From: a virus
DNA length: 16,581 nucleotides
Reading direction: 5' to 3' (one strand)
Virus record (IMG/VR): IMGVR_UViG_3300045988_158152
Under the pieces are notes generated by a model. It was not told the origin of the DNA and did not search any database. It saw nothing but the letters and a program-made list of their open reading frames with translations. Shown here in pieces: positions 2,203 to 16,581 of this stretch (within the stretch, counting starts at the first letter, position 1; every line of letters starts with the position of its first letter). The position numbers and the translations under genes are program-made.

Positions 2203-4080
2203 ATGCGAATATTTTCGTGCGACTTTGAGACAACTGTAGATGATGATACAAAACAACAAACGAGTACGGAAGTATGGAGTGCGGCTATTGCAGAACTGTA
2301 TTCAGATTTTGTTACAGTGTATAATAATATTCATGATTTCATTAAGTTCTTTCATAATCTTTGTGAAGAAAAAGTGATTGCATATTTTCATAATGTAAAA
2401 TTCGACGGTAATTTTCTGCTCAATACTCTCATGGAAAATGGGTATAAATTCCATCATCGCGAGAAGCCATACGAAAAGCTTTATAAGGGGGAATTCGACG
2501 CAATCATTTCAGGACAGAATCGCTGGTATTCCATTACTGTCTGCACAGGACGGACATTAATAGAAATACGAGATAGTGCAAAACTTATGCCAATGACGCT
2601 AGCACGAATGGGAAAAGCGTTTAATACTAAACATCGTAAACTTGAAATGGAGTATAAAGGAGAACGTCATGCTGGCGGTTTAATAAAACCCGAAGAAATG
2701 CAGTACATAATAAATGATGTTTTGGTACTTAAAGAAGCTCTTGAATTTATGCTAGATTCTGGCAACACTCGTTTAACGATAGGAAGTAATTGTATAGCTG
2801 AATATAAGAAGTGTTTTGATAAAGAGCAATGGAACGCAATGTATCCAGACCTTAAAGCAATTACACTTGACGAACAAGCTTACAAATATCCGAATGCAGA
2901 CGCATATATACGTCGCTCTTATCGTGGAGGTTGGTGTTATTGCAATCCAAAATATATGAATAAATGGATAGACGCAGATGGTATGACGTATGATGTAAAT
3001 AGTCTTTACCCATCTGTTATGCATTCCAAAAGCGGTAACATTTATCCAGTAGGTAAGCCTACATTTTGGACAGGCAACAAAATACCCGAAGAAGCTTTGC
3101 AAGAGAATAGAGTATTTTTTGTAAGACTGAAAGCGCGGTTTACAATAAAGCCTAACCACTTGCCTACAATGCAGATTAAAGATAGTCTTATGTATAAGTC
3201 CACAGAATGGCTAACCTCTTCGGACGTTCAGTTTGGCGGTAAAAAATACGCGTATTATTACGATGCAGATGGTATACTGCAATTGGCATACGCAGAATTT
3301 ACGTTAACAAGTCTTGATTATAAACTGTTTTTGGAACATTACGATATACATGAAATTGAGATTTTAAGTGGATGTTATTTTAATGCAGTTTCTGGATTAT
3401 TTGACGAGTACATAGATAAATATATGGCAATGAAAATGAACTCCGAAGGAGGTGCACGAGAAGAAGCAAAGCTTTTCCTAAACAATTGTTATGGCAAACT
3501 TGCAACAAACGATGATAGCAGTTATCAGGAACCATATTTAGACGAGGACGGATTGCTCAGATTTATTTTGCATGAAGAGCACAATAAGAAAACGCTTTCC
3601 ATAGCACAGGGAAGTTTTGTAACATCCTATGCGCGCTACTTTACAATCACACATGCACAGGCTAACTACGATAACTTTATTTATGCCGACACAGACAGCT
3701 TGCACATGTTTAAATGTGAACCAAACAAAATTGTAGAACATTCCTCAAAATTGCTGTGCTGGAAGTTAGAATCTGAATGGAGCCGTGCAAAATTCATACG
3801 CCAGAAAACATACTGTGAATTTATCCGAAAGGAAAACCATAAAAAAGTAACACCTCACTGGGAAATTAAGTGCGCTGGAATGCAAGACCGCACCAAACAG
3901 TATTTGCTTGCCACCAGACCTATTTCATGTTTTGATTATGGATTAACGTTAAATAGTCAATTAAAGCAGAAGCAAGTGAAGGGAGGGATTCTTTTGGTAG
4001 ACGCTGATTTTACTCTTTACAAGCAAAAAGCGTACAAGCCGCCTAAATCTTTTGGTAAAGTGCTTGACAAAATACAGTAA
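2203..4080 (+). CDS. Protein-primed family-B DNA polymerase (phi29 gp2-like), 625 aa
   Basis: Exonuclease motifs: ExoI (CDFETT), ExoII (HNVKFDGNFLL) and ExoIII (YIINDV). Polymerase motifs: A (YDVNSLYPS), B (KLFLNNCYGKL), C (YADTDSLH) and KxY (RQKTYCE). All closely match the phi29 polymerase motifs. Confidence 0.95.
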   Translation: MRIFSCDFETTVDDDTKQQTSTEVWSAAIAELYSDFVTVYNNIHDFIKFFHNLCEEKVIAYFHNVKFDGNFLLNTLMENGYKFHHREKPYEKLYKGEFDAIISGQNRWYSITVCTGRTLIEIRDSAKLMPMTLARMGKAFNTKHRKLEMEYKGERHAGGLIKPEEMQYIINDVLVLKEALEFMLDSGNTRLTIGSNCIAEYKKCFDKEQWNAMYPDLKAITLDEQAYKYPNADAYIRRSYRGGWCYCNPKYMNKWIDADGMTYDVNSLYPSVMHSKSGNIYPVGKPTFWTGNKIPEEALQENRVFFVRLKARFTIKPNHLPTMQIKDSLMYKSTEWLTSSDVQFGGKKYAYYYDADGILQLAYAEFTLTSLDYKLFLEHYDIHEIEILSGCYFNAVSGLFDEYIDKYMAMKMNSEGGAREEAKLFLNNCYGKLATNDDSSYQEPYLDEDGLLRFILHEEHNKKTLSIAQGSFVTSYARYFTITHAQANYDNFIYADTDSLHMFKCEPNKIVEHSSKLLCWKLESEWSRAKFIRQKTYCEFIRKENHKKVTPHWEIKCAGMQDRTKQYLLATRPISCFDYGLTLNSQLKQKQVKGGILLVDADFTLYKQKAYKPPKSFGKVLDKIQ

Positions 4081-4093
4081 AACATGGTATAAT
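4064..4093 (+). promoter_or_regulatory. Sigma-A-type promoter inside the 3' end of the polymerase gene (TTGACA-18 nt-TGgTATAAT)
   Basis: TTGACA at 4064..4069, 18-nt spacer, TGG at 4085..4087, TATAAT at 4088..4093. It lies upstream of the 4156 gene. Confidence 0.65.
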
Positions 4094-4505: not shown

Positions 4506-4853
4506 ATGAGAGATTTAATTAACACCACAACCGACAAAATGATGCTTTACAACGCTCGTACTGTAAACGGTAAACAGATGCAAGACTTTGTGGGCGATGA
4601 GTTTTTCGTAACTGATATCGTTCAGTACGAAACCGAGAGAAAGAACACAAAGGAGCCGGAATTGGGAATATGCACCGTACTGTTTACGGAAGAAGGAGAA
4701 ATGTATACAACAATGTCCCCTACGGTAAACGATTGTGTTCAGAATCTGGTTGAAATTTTTGGTGTACCTAGTGCAGAACATCCTATCAAGGTGCAGATTG
4801 CATCCGGGACTTCCAAAAGCGATAGAGAGTTTTTACAGCTTAAGGCAATCTAA
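4506..4853 (+). CDS. phi29 p5-like single-stranded DNA-binding protein, 115 aa
   Basis: Blocks LYNARTVNGK, IVQYE, TVLFTEEGEMYTTMSPTVNDCVQNLVEIF and KVQIASGTSKSDREFLQLKA parallel the recalled phi29 p5 blocks IFNAQTGGGQ, IAQYK, TTIFAADGSLYSAISKTVAEAASDLIDLV and KVKVVQGTSSKGNVFFSLQL. AAGGAGAG SD. Confidence 0.65.
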   Translation: MRDLINTTTDKMMLYNARTVNGKQMQDFVGDEFFVTDIVQYETERKNTKEPELGICTVLFTEEGEMYTTMSPTVNDCVQNLVEIFGVPSAEHPIKVQIASGTSKSDREFLQLKAI

Positions 4854-4882
4854 AACACATTTTTATATATCTGCAAATTATG

Positions 4883-4924: not shown

Positions 4925-5980
4925 ATGAGTAAGTACTACGACATATCGCGTTTGTTGAGTAAAAAAGATTTAAACGGTAAAACTCCAGAATTATTTATTG
5001 TAACAGGAAATCGTACAGCCGGAAAAACATTTTCAGCAAAGCGTACAATTTTTGATGATTTTTTAAAAGATAATAAGCGTAAATTTATGCTACAATATAG
5101 ATACAACTATGAGTTGTCTGACTGTGAGAACTCATTTTTTAGTGACATTGCGCAGCTTTACCCTTCTGACTTTGAAATGCACGCAAAGTCTGAAATGAGG
5201 GGCGCTTACAAAGTTTTGTATTTGAACGACACCGAATGCGGCTTTGCTACATTCCTTAATAATGCGGACACAATAAAGAAGGTTTCCTCACGCTTTATAG
5301 AAGTGGAAAACAGATTCATGGACGAGTTCCAGTCTGAGACTGAGCATTATTGCGAGAATGAGATTTCTAAATTTATAAGCATTCAGAATTCCATTGCCAG
5401 AGGGTTTGGTAAACAGACTAGATATGTGCGTAATATTTTATGCGGAAATAACGTTTCCATCTTGAATCCTTATTACAAGGCTTTGGGAATTCAGAAGCGT
5501 TTGGAATCTGACACAAAATTTCTGCGCGGTGATGGTTGGGTGCTGGAAGTAACGGAGAATCAGGCCGCAAAAGAAGCCCTACTTTCCAGTGGTTTCAACC
5601 GCGCTTTTAGTGAATCAAATTACGTACAATTTGCATCGTCAAATAAATACATGCTTGACACCTATTCGTTTGTTCGCAAATTGGAAACCAAAGATAAATA
5701 TTACTACTGCACAATAACTATAAACGACGGTGTTTTAGGAACCGCAGAAAACATAGGGGTTTGGATAAATAAGGACTGTCTTTATTTTTCCAGTAAAGCG
5801 AACGAAAAATTTAAACTAAAATTTGCGTTTGACGCGAACTCGCATTTTGAGGACACCTATTTACTATCCCAGCTTTCCGATACAGCTATGTCATTTAAGC
5901 GTTATTATAATTCCGGAAAAGCGTGGTTTGAAAATGTGGATATCAAAAAAGAAATGCTTGACATATTGTCATATTTATGA
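4925..5980 (+). CDS. DNA encapsidation (packaging) ATPase, phi29 gp16-like, 351 aa
   Basis: Walker A in FIVTGNRTAGKTFSAK (compare phi29 FVIGARGIGKSYAMK). Walker B in RFMDEFQSE (compare IVFDEFIRE). Also FMLQYRYNYEL and FSDIAQLYP versus phi29 FIYVRRYKPEL and FNDVAQEFP. AAGGAGG SD. Confidence 0.9.
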   Translation: MSKYYDISRLLSKKDLNGKTPELFIVTGNRTAGKTFSAKRTIFDDFLKDNKRKFMLQYRYNYELSDCENSFFSDIAQLYPSDFEMHAKSEMRGAYKVLYLNDTECGFATFLNNADTIKKVSSRFIEVENRFMDEFQSETEHYCENEISKFISIQNSIARGFGKQTRYVRNILCGNNVSILNPYYKALGIQKRLESDTKFLRGDGWVLEVTENQAAKEALLSSGFNRAFSESNYVQFASSNKYMLDTYSFVRKLETKDKYYYCTITINDGVLGTAENIGVWINKDCLYFSSKANEKFKLKFAFDANSHFEDTYLLSQLSDTAMSFKRYYNSGKAWFENVDIKKEMLDILSYL

Positions 5981-5986
5981 TACACT
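5958..5986 (+). promoter_or_regulatory. Sigma-A-type promoter inside the 3' end of the ATPase gene (TTGACA-17 nt-TGaTACACT)
   Basis: Perfect TTGACA at 5958..5963, 17-nt spacer, TGA at 5978..5980, TACACT at 5981..5986. The predicted start is near G5993/A5994, the first base of the long helix described in the next feature. Confidence 0.55.
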
Positions 5987-5992
5987 TATATT

Positions 5993-6100
5993 GAGTAGGA
6001 GTGTTTAAATTTTGGTAGACTGCTGAGGGAAAGCGGTAATACGCTGGCAGTCCCATACCGGCTTGCAATCCCGCATTTCGATTTTTAGACGCTCCTATTT
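5993..6100 (+). ncRNA. Structured non-coding RNA; candidate phi29-type packaging RNA (pRNA), or alternatively a structured late-mRNA leader
   Basis: The 163-nt gap has no credible ORF. A 17-bp end-closing helix pairs 5993..6009 with 6084..6100 (14 contiguous pairs with 2 G-U, plus 3 outer pairs). A UUUU junction follows. A long hairpin spans 6014..6059: GGUA/UACC, GACUGC/GCAGUC, AGCG/CGCU, with an 8-nt bulge UGAGGGAA and loop GUAAUA. A small hairpin UGC/GCA has loop AAUCCC. The bulge GGGA (6027..6030) is complementary to the loop UCCC (6069..6072). Confidence 0.4.
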
Positions 6101-6143
6101 CTTTAAATGTGGGATTGACGAAATAAGGGAAGGAGAAAGACGC

Positions 6144-6419
6144 ATGAATGAGAAGCTTTTGAGGATGCTAAGACGGATAGCTGGTACAGAACTGGAAGAA
6201 GGCGAAGTCTATGACGAAACTTTTATCGGTTCAGCGATTAATGAAGCGGCGTCGTATTACAGTGAAATAGAACGTGACCGCGACAGAATCCGTGCACAGT
6301 ACATTAATGATTTTACAAAGCCCAGTGTTGCTGAGGAAGAAGTCATTGCGGATATTGTGCAGAATGAAGAAAAGAAAGAAGTCCCGAAAATTAAAATCGA
6401 GGACTATTTAAACCTGTAA
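6144..6419 (+). CDS. Scaffolding protein (phi29 gp7-like), 91 aa
   Basis: ATG 6144 is preceded by GGGAAGGAG. The protein is small, helical and acidic, and lies directly upstream of the capsid gene. Its C-terminal IKIEDYLNL resembles phi29 gp7 ITIEDLEAK. The ORF-track start at 6063 is a TTG with no SD. Confidence 0.7.
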   Translation: MNEKLLRMLRRIAGTELEEGEVYDETFIGSAINEAASYYSEIERDRDRIRAQYINDFTKPSVAEEEVIADIVQNEEKKEVPKIKIEDYLNL

Positions 6420-6433
6420 AGGAGGGTTAAGAA

Positions 6434-7717
6434 ATGGCAGTAAAAAATGCAGTAACAAATGTTAAGACGCTGTTAGCAGATTTTAGAGCAAGTCTTGCTG
6501 ACACAGAATATGAAGGGCTTTTGCCTGACCCGGTTAGTACTAATATTCGGGAATTTGGCGGAACGCTTATGAACTATGAACCTGTTATGAACCGGTTCTT
6601 TGACTTTTTGGTGAATAAGGTTTCCTTCACCAAAGTGAACAAAATGTACTTTACGAATCCTTTCGGTTTCGCGAAGCGCGGTATGATTCCGTTTGGATAT
6701 ACGATTGAGGATATTTGGGTGGACATTGCAACAGCGCACGCATATGGTGAGGACACCGACCCTTGGGCGATGCTGAAAACAGAAAAACCTGACCTTAAAG
6801 TTGCATATCACAACCGGAACCGTGAGGACTACTTTAAACAGACCATATGGAGACGTGATTTACAGGCCGCGTTTTATTCCGAAGAAGGCGTTGCGTCTCT
6901 GGTTGACCGTGTAATAAACGGCATGTACACTAGTAATGATGTGGCTGAATTTGCGTACACACTTGCGTTGTTTGTGGATTATATAGACAGCGGAAAGTTT
7001 AAATTGGTTCACGCAGACGAACCTACGGACGAAGCTAGCGCAAAAAGTTTTCTTACCGCTCTTAGAATTGCTTCTAATACCTTGCGTTTTCCTACTCGTT
7101 CCATGAATGCGGCGGGAGTTATGAATACAACGTCTCTGGAAGATCAACGTCTATTTATTACTCCTAAGGCCGATGCCGTTACCAGCGTTCAGGCTCTTGC
7201 TTATGCATTCCATATGGACGAGGCGCGATTCCTTGGCAGAATTACCCTCATTCCGGAGATTCCGAATCATCCCGAAATCATAGCTGTCATTGCAGACGAG
7301 GAATTTTTGAATATCTACGATAATCTTTTCGAAGCAAATGATTTTTATGACCGTGAAAAACTGTCTTGGAATTACTGGTTGCATGTATGGCAGACTTATT
7401 TCCTGTCCCCATTTCACAATGCAGTTGCGATTACGACTGCCGCTCTTCCGACTGTTACCAGTGTTACGATTGATGGTTCAGCTGCTTATACGCCGGGCGG
7501 AAGCTCTGTTTACACAGCAACCGTAACTGGGACGAACAATCCCTCTCAGGCGGTTATGTGGTCTGTTCTCGGTAATACGTCCTCTAGTACGCGTATGAAT
7601 GATCAGGGAGTTCTGAGCGTAGGAGCTGAGGAAAAAGGAAATCTTACTATTTACGCTACGCCGTATCTTGATAACTCCGTTCATGGTGAGAAAGCTGTTA
7701 CTGCGGCAGGTAGCTGA
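6434..7717 (+). CDS. Major capsid protein (phi29 gp8-like) with C-terminal BIG2 Ig-like domain, 427 aa
   Basis: YHNRNREDYFKQTI, WNYWLHVWQTYFLSPFHNAVAI and AVMWSVLGN...GVLSVGAEEKGNLTIYAT match the recalled phi29 gp8 blocks [36 protein letters not shown] and KVVWSVEGG...GLLSVSGNEDNQLTVKAT. AAAGGAGGG SD. Confidence 0.9.
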   Translation: MAVKNAVTNVKTLLADFRASLADTEYEGLLPDPVSTNIREFGGTLMNYEPVMNRFFDFLVNKVSFTKVNKMYFTNPFGFAKRGMIPFGYTIEDIWVDIATAHAYGEDTDPWAMLKTEKPDLKVAYHNRNREDYFKQTIWRRDLQAAFYSEEGVASLVDRVINGMYTSNDVAEFAYTLALFVDYIDSGKFKLVHADEPTDEASAKSFLTALRIASNTLRFPTRSMNAAGVMNTTSLEDQRLFITPKADAVTSVQALAYAFHMDEARFLGRITLIPEIPNHPEIIAVIADEEFLNIYDNLFEANDFYDREKLSWNYWLHVWQTYFLSPFHNAVAITTAALPTVTSVTIDGSAAYTPGGSSVYTATVTGTNNPSQAVMWSVLGNTSSSTRMNDQGVLSVGAEEKGNLTIYATPYLDNSVHGEKAVTAAGS

Positions 7718-15779: not shown

Positions 15780-15789
15780 AACGGAAGAA

Positions 15790-15814
15790 CGGTGGAACCG
15801 TTATGGTTCCACCG
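15790..15814. terminator. Bidirectional rho-independent terminator between the convergent late and right-early operons
   Basis: CGGTGGAACC (15790..15799), loop GTTAT, GGTTCCACCG (15805..15814), a 10-bp GC-rich stem. On the plus strand it is followed by CCTTGTTGC, a weak U-tract. On the minus strand it is followed by TTCTTCCGTTTT. Confidence 0.7.
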
Positions 15815-15822
15815 CCTTGTTG

Positions 15823-16242: not shown

Positions 16243-16442
16243 AAATTTCTCTCATTTTCTGTTTCCTTAAGTGCAATGTAATTATCGTGAAATCTTATAA
16301 CTGCATAATCTCCGTACTTAACTGACACATCAATAAGCTTCATTTGTGAATAAATCTGTAAATGCAAGAACTGAACATTAAGTTCTGTGTCTAAATTCCA
16401 GTTATCATTGCTGTCTAAAAGTTCGCTACATTTAATCATCAT
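16239..16442 (-). CDS. Right-end early hypothetical protein, 67 aa (MMIKCSELLDSNDNWNLD...)
   Basis: The ORF-track start at 16463 is a GTG inside the 5' leader. The mirrored ITR SD GAGAGGGAA and ATGATG put the real start at 16442 or 16439. Confidence 0.7.
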   Translation of the reverse strand: MMIKCSELLDSNDNWNLDTELNVQFLHLQIYSQMKLIDVSVKYGDYAVIRFHDNYIALKETENERNL

Positions 16443-16581
16443 TTCCCTCTCTTTCTGAGTCACTATATATTTGTTACTATAATCATTATAGCATAGTGTG
16501 CTGGAAAATGCAAGCTTTATTTTTCGATGGAGGACGGGGATTTTGGTTTTCCAAAGTGCATGTTTTGGGGCCGCGACCCCC
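16437..16581. repeat. Right inverted terminal repeat (ITR-R), 145 bp
   Basis: Exact reverse complement of 1..145, compared base by base. Confidence 0.95.
16485..16513 (-). promoter_or_regulatory. Mirror copy of the ITR promoter, driving the right-end operon leftwards
   Basis: Reverse complement of 69..97. attata at 16485..16490 is TATAAT on the minus strand; atgcaa at 16508..16513 is TTGCAT. Confidence 0.75.

Follow-up and report, generated by a model that had tools for sequence, protein, structure and literature searches.

The prohead RNA (pRNA) of phage phi29 is the sole RNA known to be an indispensable component of any viral motor for DNA packaging, and since 1987 it has been held to be unique to phi29 and its relatives among the Bacillus phages (PMC5066667, PMC11476376). 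The known set, all from Bacillus phages and modelled in Rfam as RF00044 (Phage_pRNA), comprises the RNAs of phi29, PZA, B103, Nf, M2, SF5, GA-1 and the DLc1 group. In phi29 the left genome end carries the RNA gene, which follows the early genes (PMC11476376, PMC6266182). Infernal searches seeded with known pRNAs have returned Bacillus phage RNAs only (PMC12670572, PMC6266182), and when and how pRNA originated has been described as an open question (PMC7672431). A putative pRNA has been predicted outside the Bacillus phages, in Streptococcus phage Cp-1; a covariance model derived from the pRNAs of Nf and GA-1 failed to detect it reliably (PMC6266182). This RNA is not annotated in the Cp-1 record (NC_001825). 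The gaps before and after the Cp-1 scaffold gene folded strongly, and no three-way junction with a bulge/loop match was recognised in them. We know of no covariation or experimental support for the Cp-1 candidate.

The window, that is, the whole stretch of 16,581 nucleotides analysed here (IMG/VR record IMGVR_UViG_3300045988_158152), is a complete phi29-like phage genome of 16.6 kb with inverted terminal repeats of 145 bp. Pfam, PHROG and comparative assignments identified a protein-primed type B polymerase, a phi29 SSB, Phi29_MCP and a gp9 tail knob, as well as a gp10-type connector (Phage_connector, 2.9e-40; Pfam/PHROG). The gene for a phi29 gp16-type DNA packaging ATPase occupies positions 4925–5980 on the + strand (PHROG 2150, terminase, 1.5e-53). 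Its product is 27% identical to that of GA-1 gene 16, and PF05894 (Podovirus_Gp16) was present in its relatives. The stop codon of the ATPase gene is followed by a gap of 163 nt (5981–6143), which had been singled out in the first-pass annotation as the only large non-coding gap of the late region; this holds among the + strand genes between 2203 and 15779. The next gene is a presumed scaffold gene (91 aa; 6144–6419, + strand), assigned by synteny in L023–L026, with its ribosome binding site (RBS) at about 6127–6136. GGGA-like purine runs also occur at this RBS. Based on the promoter, fold, conservation and covariation described below, we consider it likely that a small stand-alone RNA of approximately 108–115 nt is encoded in the gap and that it is the counterpart of phi29 prohead RNA.

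A promoter-like site overlaps the end of the ATPase gene. Its −35 hexamer TTGACA (5958–5963, + strand) still lies within the ATPase gene, near its 3' end, and is invariant in 18 close genomes. After a spacer of 17 nt follows the extended −10 element TGaTACACT (5978–5986, + strand; TG at 5978–5979, TACACT at 5981–5986), in which TG forms the first letters of the ATPase stop codon TGA (5978–5980). The site scored 10/12 plus the extended −10, in agreement with the near-consensus promoter proposed earlier. In some close relatives the −10 is TACAAT, nearer to the consensus, and only positions 5971, 5974 and 5985 near the promoter varied among the 18 genomes. TTGACA was also kept in the more distant genomes L023, L025, L026, L036 and L109. 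The −10 ends 6 nt 5' of a 108-nt structured element (5993–6100), and we infer that transcription starts at about 5993, which would make the first base of the closing helix of the element (helix A) the 5' end of the RNA. At the other end, a U-rich tract read from the sequence (UUUCUUUAA; 6098–6106, + strand), which takes in the base of helix A and the nucleotides behind it, may serve as a weak, terminator-like 3' end. A U-rich run was found at the matching place in all members of the clade to which the window belongs. A terminator scan of 5981–6143 detected no intrinsic terminator (a short G+C-rich hairpin with a 3–8-nt loop and a T run); the only terminator-like feature in the gap is the long-range helix A together with the U-rich run.

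Positions 5993–6100 were folded by RNAfold at −40.4 kcal/mol (z = −4.22), a value reached by 0 of 200 shuffles, and the opposite strand folded far worse (−26.8 kcal/mol, z = −1.9). The element, 108 nt long as estimated earlier, is a three-way junction closed by a helix of 17 bp, all on the + strand. Helix A pairs 5993–6009 with 6084–6100, exactly the helix first proposed, with zero mismatches and four G.U pairs; the 3' strand is defined by the fold and by covariation in the clade. The junction strand UUUU (6010–6013) leads from helix A to the C arm and reads UCUAU, CUAUU or UUUAU in relatives. The 5' strand of the C arm (6014–6024) comprises an outer GGUA (6014–6017) and an inner GACUGCU (6018–6024); the 3' strand (6046–6059) comprises GGCAGUC (6046–6052), a CCA bulge and UACC (6056–6059). 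Enclosed by the C arm are the 5' bulge GAGGGAA (6025–6031), the equivalent of the pRNA CE bulge, and the E hairpin AGCG-GUAAUA-CGCU (6032–6045), whose 4 bp and 6-nt loop are the dimensions of helix/loop E in phi29. The D hairpin UGC-AAUCCC-GCA (6064–6075) has a stem of 3 bp. GGGA in the bulge (6027–6030) is complementary to UCCC in the D loop (6069–6072). The RNAfold structure contained the U-rich junction and the small hairpin with loop AAUCCC named in the first-pass annotation, and also its bulged hairpin at 6014–6059 with GGGA in the bulge; the bulge length had to be corrected from 8 to 7 nt. The weakness of the second hairpin, given as about 3 bp, was borne out in the window, and the D stem of relatives has 6–10 bp.

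Topology alone was not specific, since a loose descriptor of the layout had approximately 20 chance matches in the window. These matches count in favour of a chance fold in an ordinary intergenic spacer with no more than a promoter in it. A strict descriptor (helix A ≥ 12 bp, helix C ≥ 6 bp) matched the window only at the element, 1 observed against 0.017 expected, the mean per shuffle among dinucleotide shuffles (1/60). The fold energy (z = −4.2) also speaks against chance, as do the 0 of 131 variable sites and the compensatory changes in every helix. We regard a chance fold as having a negligible probability, refuted by the conservation and covariation results. The significance of the element is carried only by its helix lengths, energy, conservation and covariation, not by the bare topology.

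The conservation test was carried out with the window and its closest genomes. None of the 131 columns from 5987 to 6117 varied among the 18 genomes, compared with approximately 24% of columns elsewhere, 267 of 1056 in the ATPase gene and 329 of 1284 in the capsid gene. The element does not differ between the 17 closest genomes (L001–L017), which therefore offered no covariation and were used for this test. Other readings of the stretch were considered. A tRNA or tmRNA was rejected. An extension of the scaffold ORF from TTG at 6063 is unlikely because every position is invariant, not just codon positions 1 and 2; the ATG at 6144 with its good RBS also counts against it. An RNA from the minus strand is unlikely in view of the 3–5 G.U pairs that helix A contains in each RNA and the poor fold of the minus strand.

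Covariation was analysed in the clade of the window, which comprises six ATPase clusters with 47–50% identity and a common gene order. Its members all kept TTGACA-17-(TG)TATAAT and the fold, with differing helix sequences and fold z-scores down to −7.9. In the RNAalifold analysis of the clade alignment, compensatory changes were present in 17 of 28 pairs. Helix A accounted for 17 pairs, 13 of them with compensatory changes and 1 broken cell in the alignment; across the six RNAs it had zero non-pairs and 3–5 G.U pairs each. Between L025 and L111, a single double change replaced G-C with A-U. Covariation in homologues, the test set beforehand, was found in helices A, C and D, including the longer D stems of the relatives. 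GGGA of the bulge and AUCCC of the D loop were invariant across the clade, and a fifth kissing pair covaried (AGGGA/UCCCU in L026 vs UGGGA/UCCCA in L036). The complementarity of bulge and loop was kept throughout, over D stem lengths ranging from 3 to 10 bp. L109 and L110, with 46% identical ATPases and the same gene order, could not be convincingly parsed into the pRNA layout; their gap contains a different, G+C-rich structure and a promoter of the same kind.

RF00044 was scanned at its gathering threshold (100 bits) and at relaxed thresholds. It gave no match at E ≤ 10 on 5900–6200, at E ≤ 5 in the whole window, or at E ≤ 10 in 12 related loci; phi29 itself scored 145.4 bits. The scan with the Rfam phi29 pRNA model, suggested as a check in the first-pass annotation, did not match the element. 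An Rfam-type pRNA scan also found no other pRNA candidate elsewhere in the window genome. Chance matches to Rfam in the window scans were XIST_intron (E = 9.7), mir-7637 and AdoCbl, never pRNA.

A second, much larger group of ATPase-adjacent RNAs, the sister family, was described with a covariance model built here (R1). R1 matched at least 73 loci, and at least 73 of the 81 searched sources carried such an RNA. These RNAs are 108–118 nt long and have the arrangement seen in the clade of the window. Among their sources are the named isolates Clostridium phages CS229P1–3 and HM2, whose records contain no annotated feature at this place. With filters off, R1 matched neither 5993–6100 nor the RNAs of L023, L025, L026 and L036, nor did it detect HM2, and therefore no sequence-level homology is claimed. 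Architecture, position and related ATPases are the basis for regarding the two groups as homologous; sequence statistics do not contribute. A model restricted to the core was dropped, as the MAFFT core alignment misaligned the E helix between loop-length classes.

In the sister family, 30 bulge variants covaried with the hairpin loop. The bulge/D-loop pairs had been left out of R1, and their positions were paired in 83.5% of cases, compared with 60% in shuffles and 15–41% in slid registers. The two central pairs were GC19/AU17/UA10/CG3 and GC19/AU15/CG11/UA5. An alignment-free test found at least 4 contiguous Watson–Crick pairs in 86% vs 27% of combinations, with 0 of 5000 permutations as high, and the same parser recovered the known AACC/GGUU of phi29. 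The complementarity of bulge GGGA and loop UCCC, first noticed in the window and invariant in its clade, occupies positions whose equivalents covary extensively in the sister family.

Judged by the sequences, this covariation fits an intermolecular contact and an intramolecular pseudoknot equally. The element could be a trans-acting or structural phage RNA with another function, such as host takeover, anti-defence or replication, with a convergent likeness to pRNA and a pseudoknot formed within one molecule. Covariation cannot tell intramolecular from intermolecular pairing, and an intramolecular contact looks geometrically possible in L023, where C (9 bp) and D (9–10 bp) are of similar length. 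Moreover, neither the Rfam pRNA model nor R1 ties the RNA of the window to known pRNAs. We nevertheless consider such a function rather unlikely. The whole layout and its dimensions match pRNA, the phages concerned have phi29-type motor proteins, and the RNA tracks the ATPase gene through five gene arrangements. In the window, helix lengths suggest that an intramolecular contact would be difficult, as D has 3 bp and the bulge lies approximately 11 bp from the junction. The D stem varies from 3 to 10 bp, yet the complementarity is kept.

The RNA stays beside the ATPase gene through the five arrangements, while all else moves; the ATPase gene is its constant neighbour. In a large clade, the RNA lies directly 3' of the ATPase stop codon and is followed by a terminator. 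In L039, L040 and L042 it lies 3' of an inserted small ORF. In genomes of the L059 type, the RNA and the ATPase gene are on opposite strands, and a separate promoter (TTGACA-17-TAAATT) 6 nt upstream of the RNA is so placed that transcription would start at its first base. In the clade of the window the RNA sits before the late genes, and in CI461P1 and LE1-1 it is found upstream of the ATPase gene. For most sister-family RNAs no clear promoter was detected (mean best score 7.1 vs 6.15 at random positions), and having its own promoter is therefore a property limited to the clade of the window and the L059-type genomes.

These arrangements bear on the possibility that the element acts in cis, as a 5' leader or attenuator of the scaffold–capsid operon transcribed from the promoter at 5958, and as a terminator or stabiliser of the ATPase transcript. 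In the window, the element and the scaffold gene are transcribed in the same direction with no canonical terminator in between, as expected of a leader. The U-rich run after helix A in all clade members and the GGGA-like purine runs at the downstream RBS would also fit a cis-acting role. In addition, an invariant segment downstream of the element (AAAUGUGGGAUUG; 6105–6117, + strand) can form 13 bp with 6066–6078 in the D hairpin region, an alternative fold seen in the minimum-energy structure of the longer context. Neither this segment nor the alternative pairing was conserved in L023, L025, L026 and L036. In the sister family a strong terminator stands directly 3' of the RNA, with no gene downstream of it in cis, and the L059-type RNA is encoded on the opposite strand to the ATPase gene with its own promoter starting at its first base. 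For a leader, a covarying long-range loop contact and 131 invariant positions would both be superfluous. We therefore consider a cis-acting role very unlikely.

The element is probably a divergent packaging RNA of the pRNA type in a new genomic position, and on this reading the following sequence of events can be proposed. Host sigma-A RNA polymerase would start at about 5993 from the strong promoter overlapping the ATPase stop codon, and the RNA would also be available as the 3' end of the ATPase transcript. Transcripts would stop, at least in part, at helix A and the U-rich run, with read-through supplying the scaffold and capsid genes. Once folded into the three-way junction, each RNA would pair its GGGA bulge with the UCCC loop of the next molecule, and the RNAs would assemble into a ring that sits on the empty prohead's connector. 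The long helix A, projecting outwards, would dock the gp16-type ATPase, which would then pump the protein-capped linear genome into the head. The RNA would depart before addition of the tail. In this scheme the transcript ends, the ring between molecules, the binding to connector and ATPase, and a need for the RNA in packaging are drawn by analogy from phi29.

The ATPase family of gut phi29-like phages contains more than 1,200 protein clusters, and the hosts of these phages are gut Clostridia-type bacteria, not Bacillus. On balance, we favour the view that RNA-dependent packaging is widespread in the phi29-like phages of the human gut and that it relies on a large, diverse and unrecognised pRNA family whose RNA gene is tied to the ATPase gene. 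These RNAs escape current models. Among their interlocking loops, dozens of matched "alleles" have arisen, and these may constitute a code for assembly specificity between co-infecting phages. If the RNAs are pRNAs, an RNA-dependent motor is common in the gut virome, the pRNA fold is far older and more plastic than thought, and many natural variants of three-way junctions and interlocking loops become available for structural work and RNA nanotechnology. Relatives with this type of RNA and a recorded host are CS229P1–3 (Clostridium symbiosum), CI461P1 (a Clostridium_AQ strain) and LE1-1 (Eggerthella lenta); HM2 is a further named isolate with such an RNA, with no host given in its record. The existence of relatives with named hosts makes the idea directly testable.

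The two groups of gut phage RNAs share their architecture, their place beside the packaging ATPase gene and the bulge/D-loop complementarity. The E hairpin of most sister-family members has 3–4 bp and a loop of 6–10 nt (4 nt in HM2), and in L080 its 14-mer is identical to that of the window. The sister family differs from the window in its conserved ends (GUAUCU...AGAUAUA), a bulge of 6 nt and a helix A in three segments, with a 3-nt bulge and an internal loop, which is uninterrupted in the window. It also has a strong terminator directly 3', and usually no visible promoter of its own. Like small RNAs derived from 3' UTRs and terminators, the RNA of most relatives runs from the ATPase stop codon to the operon terminator. 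Unlike them, the RNAs in the clade of the window and in genomes of the L059 type have a promoter to themselves, from which transcription would begin at the first base of helix A, and the fold of the window is far more elaborate than a terminator hairpin.

For the comparison with phi29 pRNA, the layout was taken from the Rfam alignment of phi29 itself. Similarity between the two RNAs was not detectable in sequence or by covariance model. The RNA gene of the window lies mid-genome beside the ATPase gene, a position noted as new from the outset, as the phi29 gene is found at the left end of its genome (PMC11476376, PMC6266182). Between A and C lies the main unpaired junction strand of the window; that of phi29 lies between C and D. 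The phi29 helix A has a CCA bulge that binds the ATPase (PMC5066667). No such bulge was present in the 17 uninterrupted pairs of helix A in the window; it may belong to phi29 and not be defining for the class. The D hairpin of the window has only 3 bp, unlike that of phi29, and no domain II is obvious. The C helix has 9 bp in phi29 and in L023, compared with 7 + 4 bp in the window, and the 5' bulge has 9 nt in phi29 and 7–8 nt in RNAs of the type found in the window. Both RNAs belong to small protein-primed podophages with a gp16-type ATPase and a gp10-type connector, and both have a strong sigma-A-type promoter. In each, the 5' and 3' ends pair as a long helix A that closes a domain of approximately 110–120 nt, the feature that had first suggested a resemblance to phi29. 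The layout corresponds in every element. The common order is A helix, junction, C helix, 5' bulge, E hairpin, junction, D hairpin and A helix, forming a three-way junction with the bulge on the 5' side and the 3' strand of E continuous with that of C. In phi29 and window alike, E is a hairpin of 4 bp with a loop of 6 nt. Unpaired U residues at the three-way junction are common to pRNA and the element (PMC5066667, PMC12670572), and in pRNA as in these RNAs the D loop matches approximately 4 nt of the bulge in a complementarity whose two sides covary between lineages (PMC5066667, PMC12670572).

The 16,581-bp genome is linear and carries perfect inverted terminal repeats of 145 bp (1–145 and 16437–16581), so the genome is complete and of the linear, protein-primed type. 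A promoter-like site (TGCTATAAT) lies inside the terminal repeat. The plus strand encodes a protein-primed type B DNA polymerase (2203–4080), a phi29-type SSB (4506–4853), the packaging ATPase (4925–5980; PHROG 2150, 1.5e-53; stop codon TGA, 5978–5980), a small ORF presumed to be the scaffold gene (6144–6419), a Phi29_MCP capsid protein (6434–7717), and the gp9 tail knob, gp10 connector and lower collar protein. Since the ATPase matched PHROG 2150 and GA-1 gene 16 (27% identity), and its metagenomic relatives carried PF05894 (Podovirus_Gp16), the window represents a phi29-like phage. Its nearest relatives in GenBank and IMG/VR were obtained from samples of human faeces. A promoter site with a perfect 12/12 match (TTGACA-18-TATAAT with TG, 4064–4093) lies across the polymerase gene end, ahead of the small-ORF/SSB/ATPase block. 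The transcription unit that includes the ATPase is therefore probably an early or middle one. Two strong hairpins resemble bidirectional terminators: one at 1263–1295 (15 bp), with a TTTACA-17-TATAAT promoter after it at 1301, and one at 15788–15816 (11–12 bp), adjoining short minus-strand ORFs at the right end.

The first-pass annotation had proposed a packaging RNA (pRNA) with its own promoter in the gap after the ATPase gene, and all the items it described were present. The promoter-like sequence (TTGACA 5958–5963, 17-nt spacer, TACACT 5981–5986; 10/12) has an extended −10 whose TG is part of the ATPase stop codon. Six bases past the −10, at G5993, the predicted start, begins a folding stretch of 108 nt (5993–6100). 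It is closed by a helix A of 17 bp (5993–6009 with 6084–6100), which is separated from the C arm by a U-rich junction (UUUU). The bulged arm comprises GGUA/UACC and GACUGCU/GGCAGUC, a 7-nt 5' bulge (GAGGGAA) and the hairpin AGCG-GUAAUA-CGCU; the small hairpin D is UGC-AAUCCC-GCA. GGGA in the bulge (6027–6030) is complementary to UCCC in the D loop (6069–6072). The fold had an energy of −40.4 kcal/mol (z = −4.22), equalled by 0 of 200 dinucleotide shuffles; the opposite strand folded poorly (−26.8 kcal/mol, z = −1.9). A permissive topology descriptor found approximately 20 chance matches across the window, so topology by itself proves nothing. With a strict descriptor (helix A of at least 12 bp, helix C of at least 6 bp), the element was the sole match and shuffled windows averaged 0.017 matches. 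That the structure is a product of chance is extremely improbable.

Conservation was assessed in the window, 16 IMG/VR contigs and GenBank MT835904, the relatives sharing 89–97% identity with the window across 7 kb. About 24% of all columns were variable (ATPase gene 267/1056, capsid gene 329/1284), against 0 of 131 at 5987–6117; from these counts, we calculated a chance of ~1e-15 for this at the background rate. The only changes nearby were at 5971, 5974 and 5985 (promoter spacer and −10, TACACT to TACAAT) and at 6127 and 6138 (near the RBS). The element is therefore under stronger nucleotide-level constraint than the flanking protein-coding genes. In the D hairpin region, CAAUCCCGCAUUU (6066–6078) can also pair over 13 bp with AAAUGUGGGAUUG (6105–6117), which lies just 3' of the RNA, holds a second GGGA and was invariant in the 18 genomes. 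Longer transcripts bring this pairing into competition with the pRNA-like fold; clade members with ~50% ATPase identity did not retain it.

The next ATPase protein clusters (P0002–P0005, P0008) were 47–50% identical to the window ATPase, and their genomes shared the order polymerase, small ORF, SSB, ATPase, gap, small ORF and capsid gene. The gaps retained TTGACA-17-(TG)TATAAT at the ATPase gene end and the same fold, with differing helix sequences (z = −7.9, −3.7, −5.2 and −2.4). Covariation in homologues, a check named in the first-pass annotation, was detected: an RNAalifold alignment of seven RNAs gave 28 pairs, 17 with compensatory changes, and helix A contained one broken cell in 17 × 7. 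In six RNAs, helix A had zero non-pairs and 3–5 G·U pairs each, which fixes the strand of the RNA. Two close RNAs, L025 (3582–3694) and L111, are set apart in helix A by one G–C to A–U double substitution, a recent compensatory change. The inner C helix varied by member (GACUGCU, ..GUGAC, UCCGGC, GGUC, UGGCC). The weakness seen earlier in the second hairpin applies to the window, where D has 3 bp, but not to its relatives, whose D stems have 6–10 bp and covary. Within the clade, the bulge GGGA and the D-loop AUCCC did not vary, the fifth bulge/loop pair covaried (AGGGA/UCCCU in L026 versus UGGGA/UCCCA in L036), and every member had a U-rich run after helix A. Two further genomes (L109 and L110; ATPase 46% identical, same gene order) carry a different, G+C-rich structured RNA in the gap (~2266–2441), behind a TTGACA-17-TGGTAATAT promoter; no convincing fit of this RNA to the pRNA layout was found.

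ATPases at 36–46% identity formed >1,268 clusters (E ≤ 1e-10), and of the first 600 candidates from IMG/VR they made up 581. Nearly all of 80 such IMG/VR loci had an RNA of 108–118 nt starting at the ATPase stop codon, and the same held for several faecal contigs and for Clostridium phage CS229P1-3, which are named isolates. This sister family has conserved ends (GUAUCU...AGAUAUA) followed by a strong terminator. A long closing helix in three segments leads to a three-way junction with two arms: helix C, carrying hairpin E beyond a 6-nt 5' bulge, and hairpin D. A covariance model (R1) built from 27 of these RNAs found 73 true copies in 81 sources, one at each locus. Among 57 distinct RNAs aligned with R1, 83% of cells were paired versus 61% in shuffles, with double changes in 29 of 33 pairs. 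The decisive result came from the five bulge/D-loop pairs, which were left out of the model: 83.5% were paired, versus 60% in shuffles and 15–41% in shifted registers, and the two central pairs occurred as GC, AU, UA and CG in comparable numbers. For a test that needed no alignment, 49 distinct RNAs carrying 30 different bulges were used, among them HM2, L022 and the RNAs of the window's clade. At least four contiguous Watson–Crick pairs linked bulge and own 3' region in 86% of cases, versus 27% of mismatched combinations; the observed mean was reached in 0 of 5000 permutations. The same parser recovered the known phi29 AACC/GGUU as a positive control. Bulge and loop could also pair within one molecule, as a pseudoknot in an RNA of another function; we consider this unlikely, because the layout resembles that of pRNA, motor genes are present and the RNA is linked to the ATPase gene.

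That linkage took five different forms. The RNA lay directly 3' of the ATPase gene, with downstream genes convergent or unrelated; or 3' of it past an inserted small ORF (~50 codons, ~2527–2735, in L039, L040 and L042, otherwise typical sister-family genomes); or on the opposite strand, convergent with it (L059, L062, L067, L068, L069 and L071; minus strand, ~2700–2818, after a 401-aa ORF); or, in the window's clade, downstream of it and ahead of the late genes, behind a promoter of its own; or upstream of it. The last was found in two distant phi29-like gut phages with ATPases ~25% identical, Clostridium phage CI461P1 (L115, ~1372–1445) and Eggerthella phage LE1-1 (L116, ~1112–1200), as three-way-junction RNAs with bulge/loop matches ACCA/UGGU and GGGGC/GCCCC, respectively. 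The convergent RNA and the ATPase gene share a bidirectional terminator. Its own promoter (TTGACA-17-TAAATT) ends 6 nt before the first RNA base. In two independent arrangements, a near-consensus promoter is positioned such that transcription would begin with the first helix A base, which argues for a discrete RNA with its predicted 5' end at the helix A foot. A purely cis-acting leader or attenuator would fit the alternative 13-bp pairing (6066–6078 with 6105–6117) and the absence of a canonical terminator ahead of the scaffold gene. It is disfavoured by sister-family RNAs that have no downstream gene or lie on the other strand, and we hold it to be quite improbable.

The best explanation, and a probable one, is that the element is a pRNA-type packaging RNA. 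It would be transcribed from the promoter at 5958, and probably also produced as the tail of the ATPase transcript, terminating at helix A and the following U run. GGGA/UCCC contacts would assemble the RNAs into a ring on the connector, and helix A would dock the ATPase. The RNA might also act as a leaky terminator setting the ratio of RNA to late mRNA, a dual role compatible with all data. The literature searched describes pRNA as confined to phi29 and its Bacillus phage relatives (PMC5066667, PMC11476376), and the pRNAs gained from recent structure-based searches all belong to Bacillus phages (PMC12670572, PMC6266182). It contained no paper linking pRNA to Guelinviridae or gut phi29-like phages, the CS229P1 record has no annotated feature at the RNA site, and Rfam 15 holds no family for the element. 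The element bears on the long-standing question of the origin and distribution of the phi29 motor RNA component (PMC7672431), and isolates exist for testing.

A scan with the Rfam phi29 pRNA model (RF00044), proposed in the first-pass annotation, gave no match on the element or on 12 related loci at E ≤ 10, nor on the whole window at E ≤ 5; phi29 pRNA itself scored 145 bits. R1 gave no score to RNAs of the window's clade. Scored by neither model, the element belongs to neither model-defined family. This is weak evidence against a pRNA, since known pRNAs keep their fold at ~12% sequence similarity (PMC5066667) and a model from Nf and GA-1 failed on the putative pRNA of Cp-1 (PMC6266182). In the record of Streptococcus phage Cp-1 (L114), that pRNA is not annotated and was not located; the gap before the scaffold gene (4655–4875), with annotated late promoters PL1 and PL2, folds (−70 kcal/mol for its 221 nt) into a long and irregular helix. 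In phi29, the CE bulge and D loop interlock between molecules, mediating self-association, and helix A contacts the ATPase (PMC5066667, PMC12670572). According to the RF00044 structure line, phi29 pRNA consists of helix A with a CCA bulge, one unpaired U, helix C (5+4 bp) with a 9-nt 5' bulge (GAUUAAACC), helix E (4 bp, 6-nt loop) immediately followed by the C 3' strand, UUU, hairpin D (6 bp, loop UGGUU) and the A 3' strand. The window RNA differs in its gene location, as had been claimed, in the absence of sequence similarity, in its unbroken helix A and short D stem, and in having its longest unpaired junction strand between A and C. Its elements and their order are identical and its dimensions similar, and as far as sequence analysis can tell, it would work like a pRNA.
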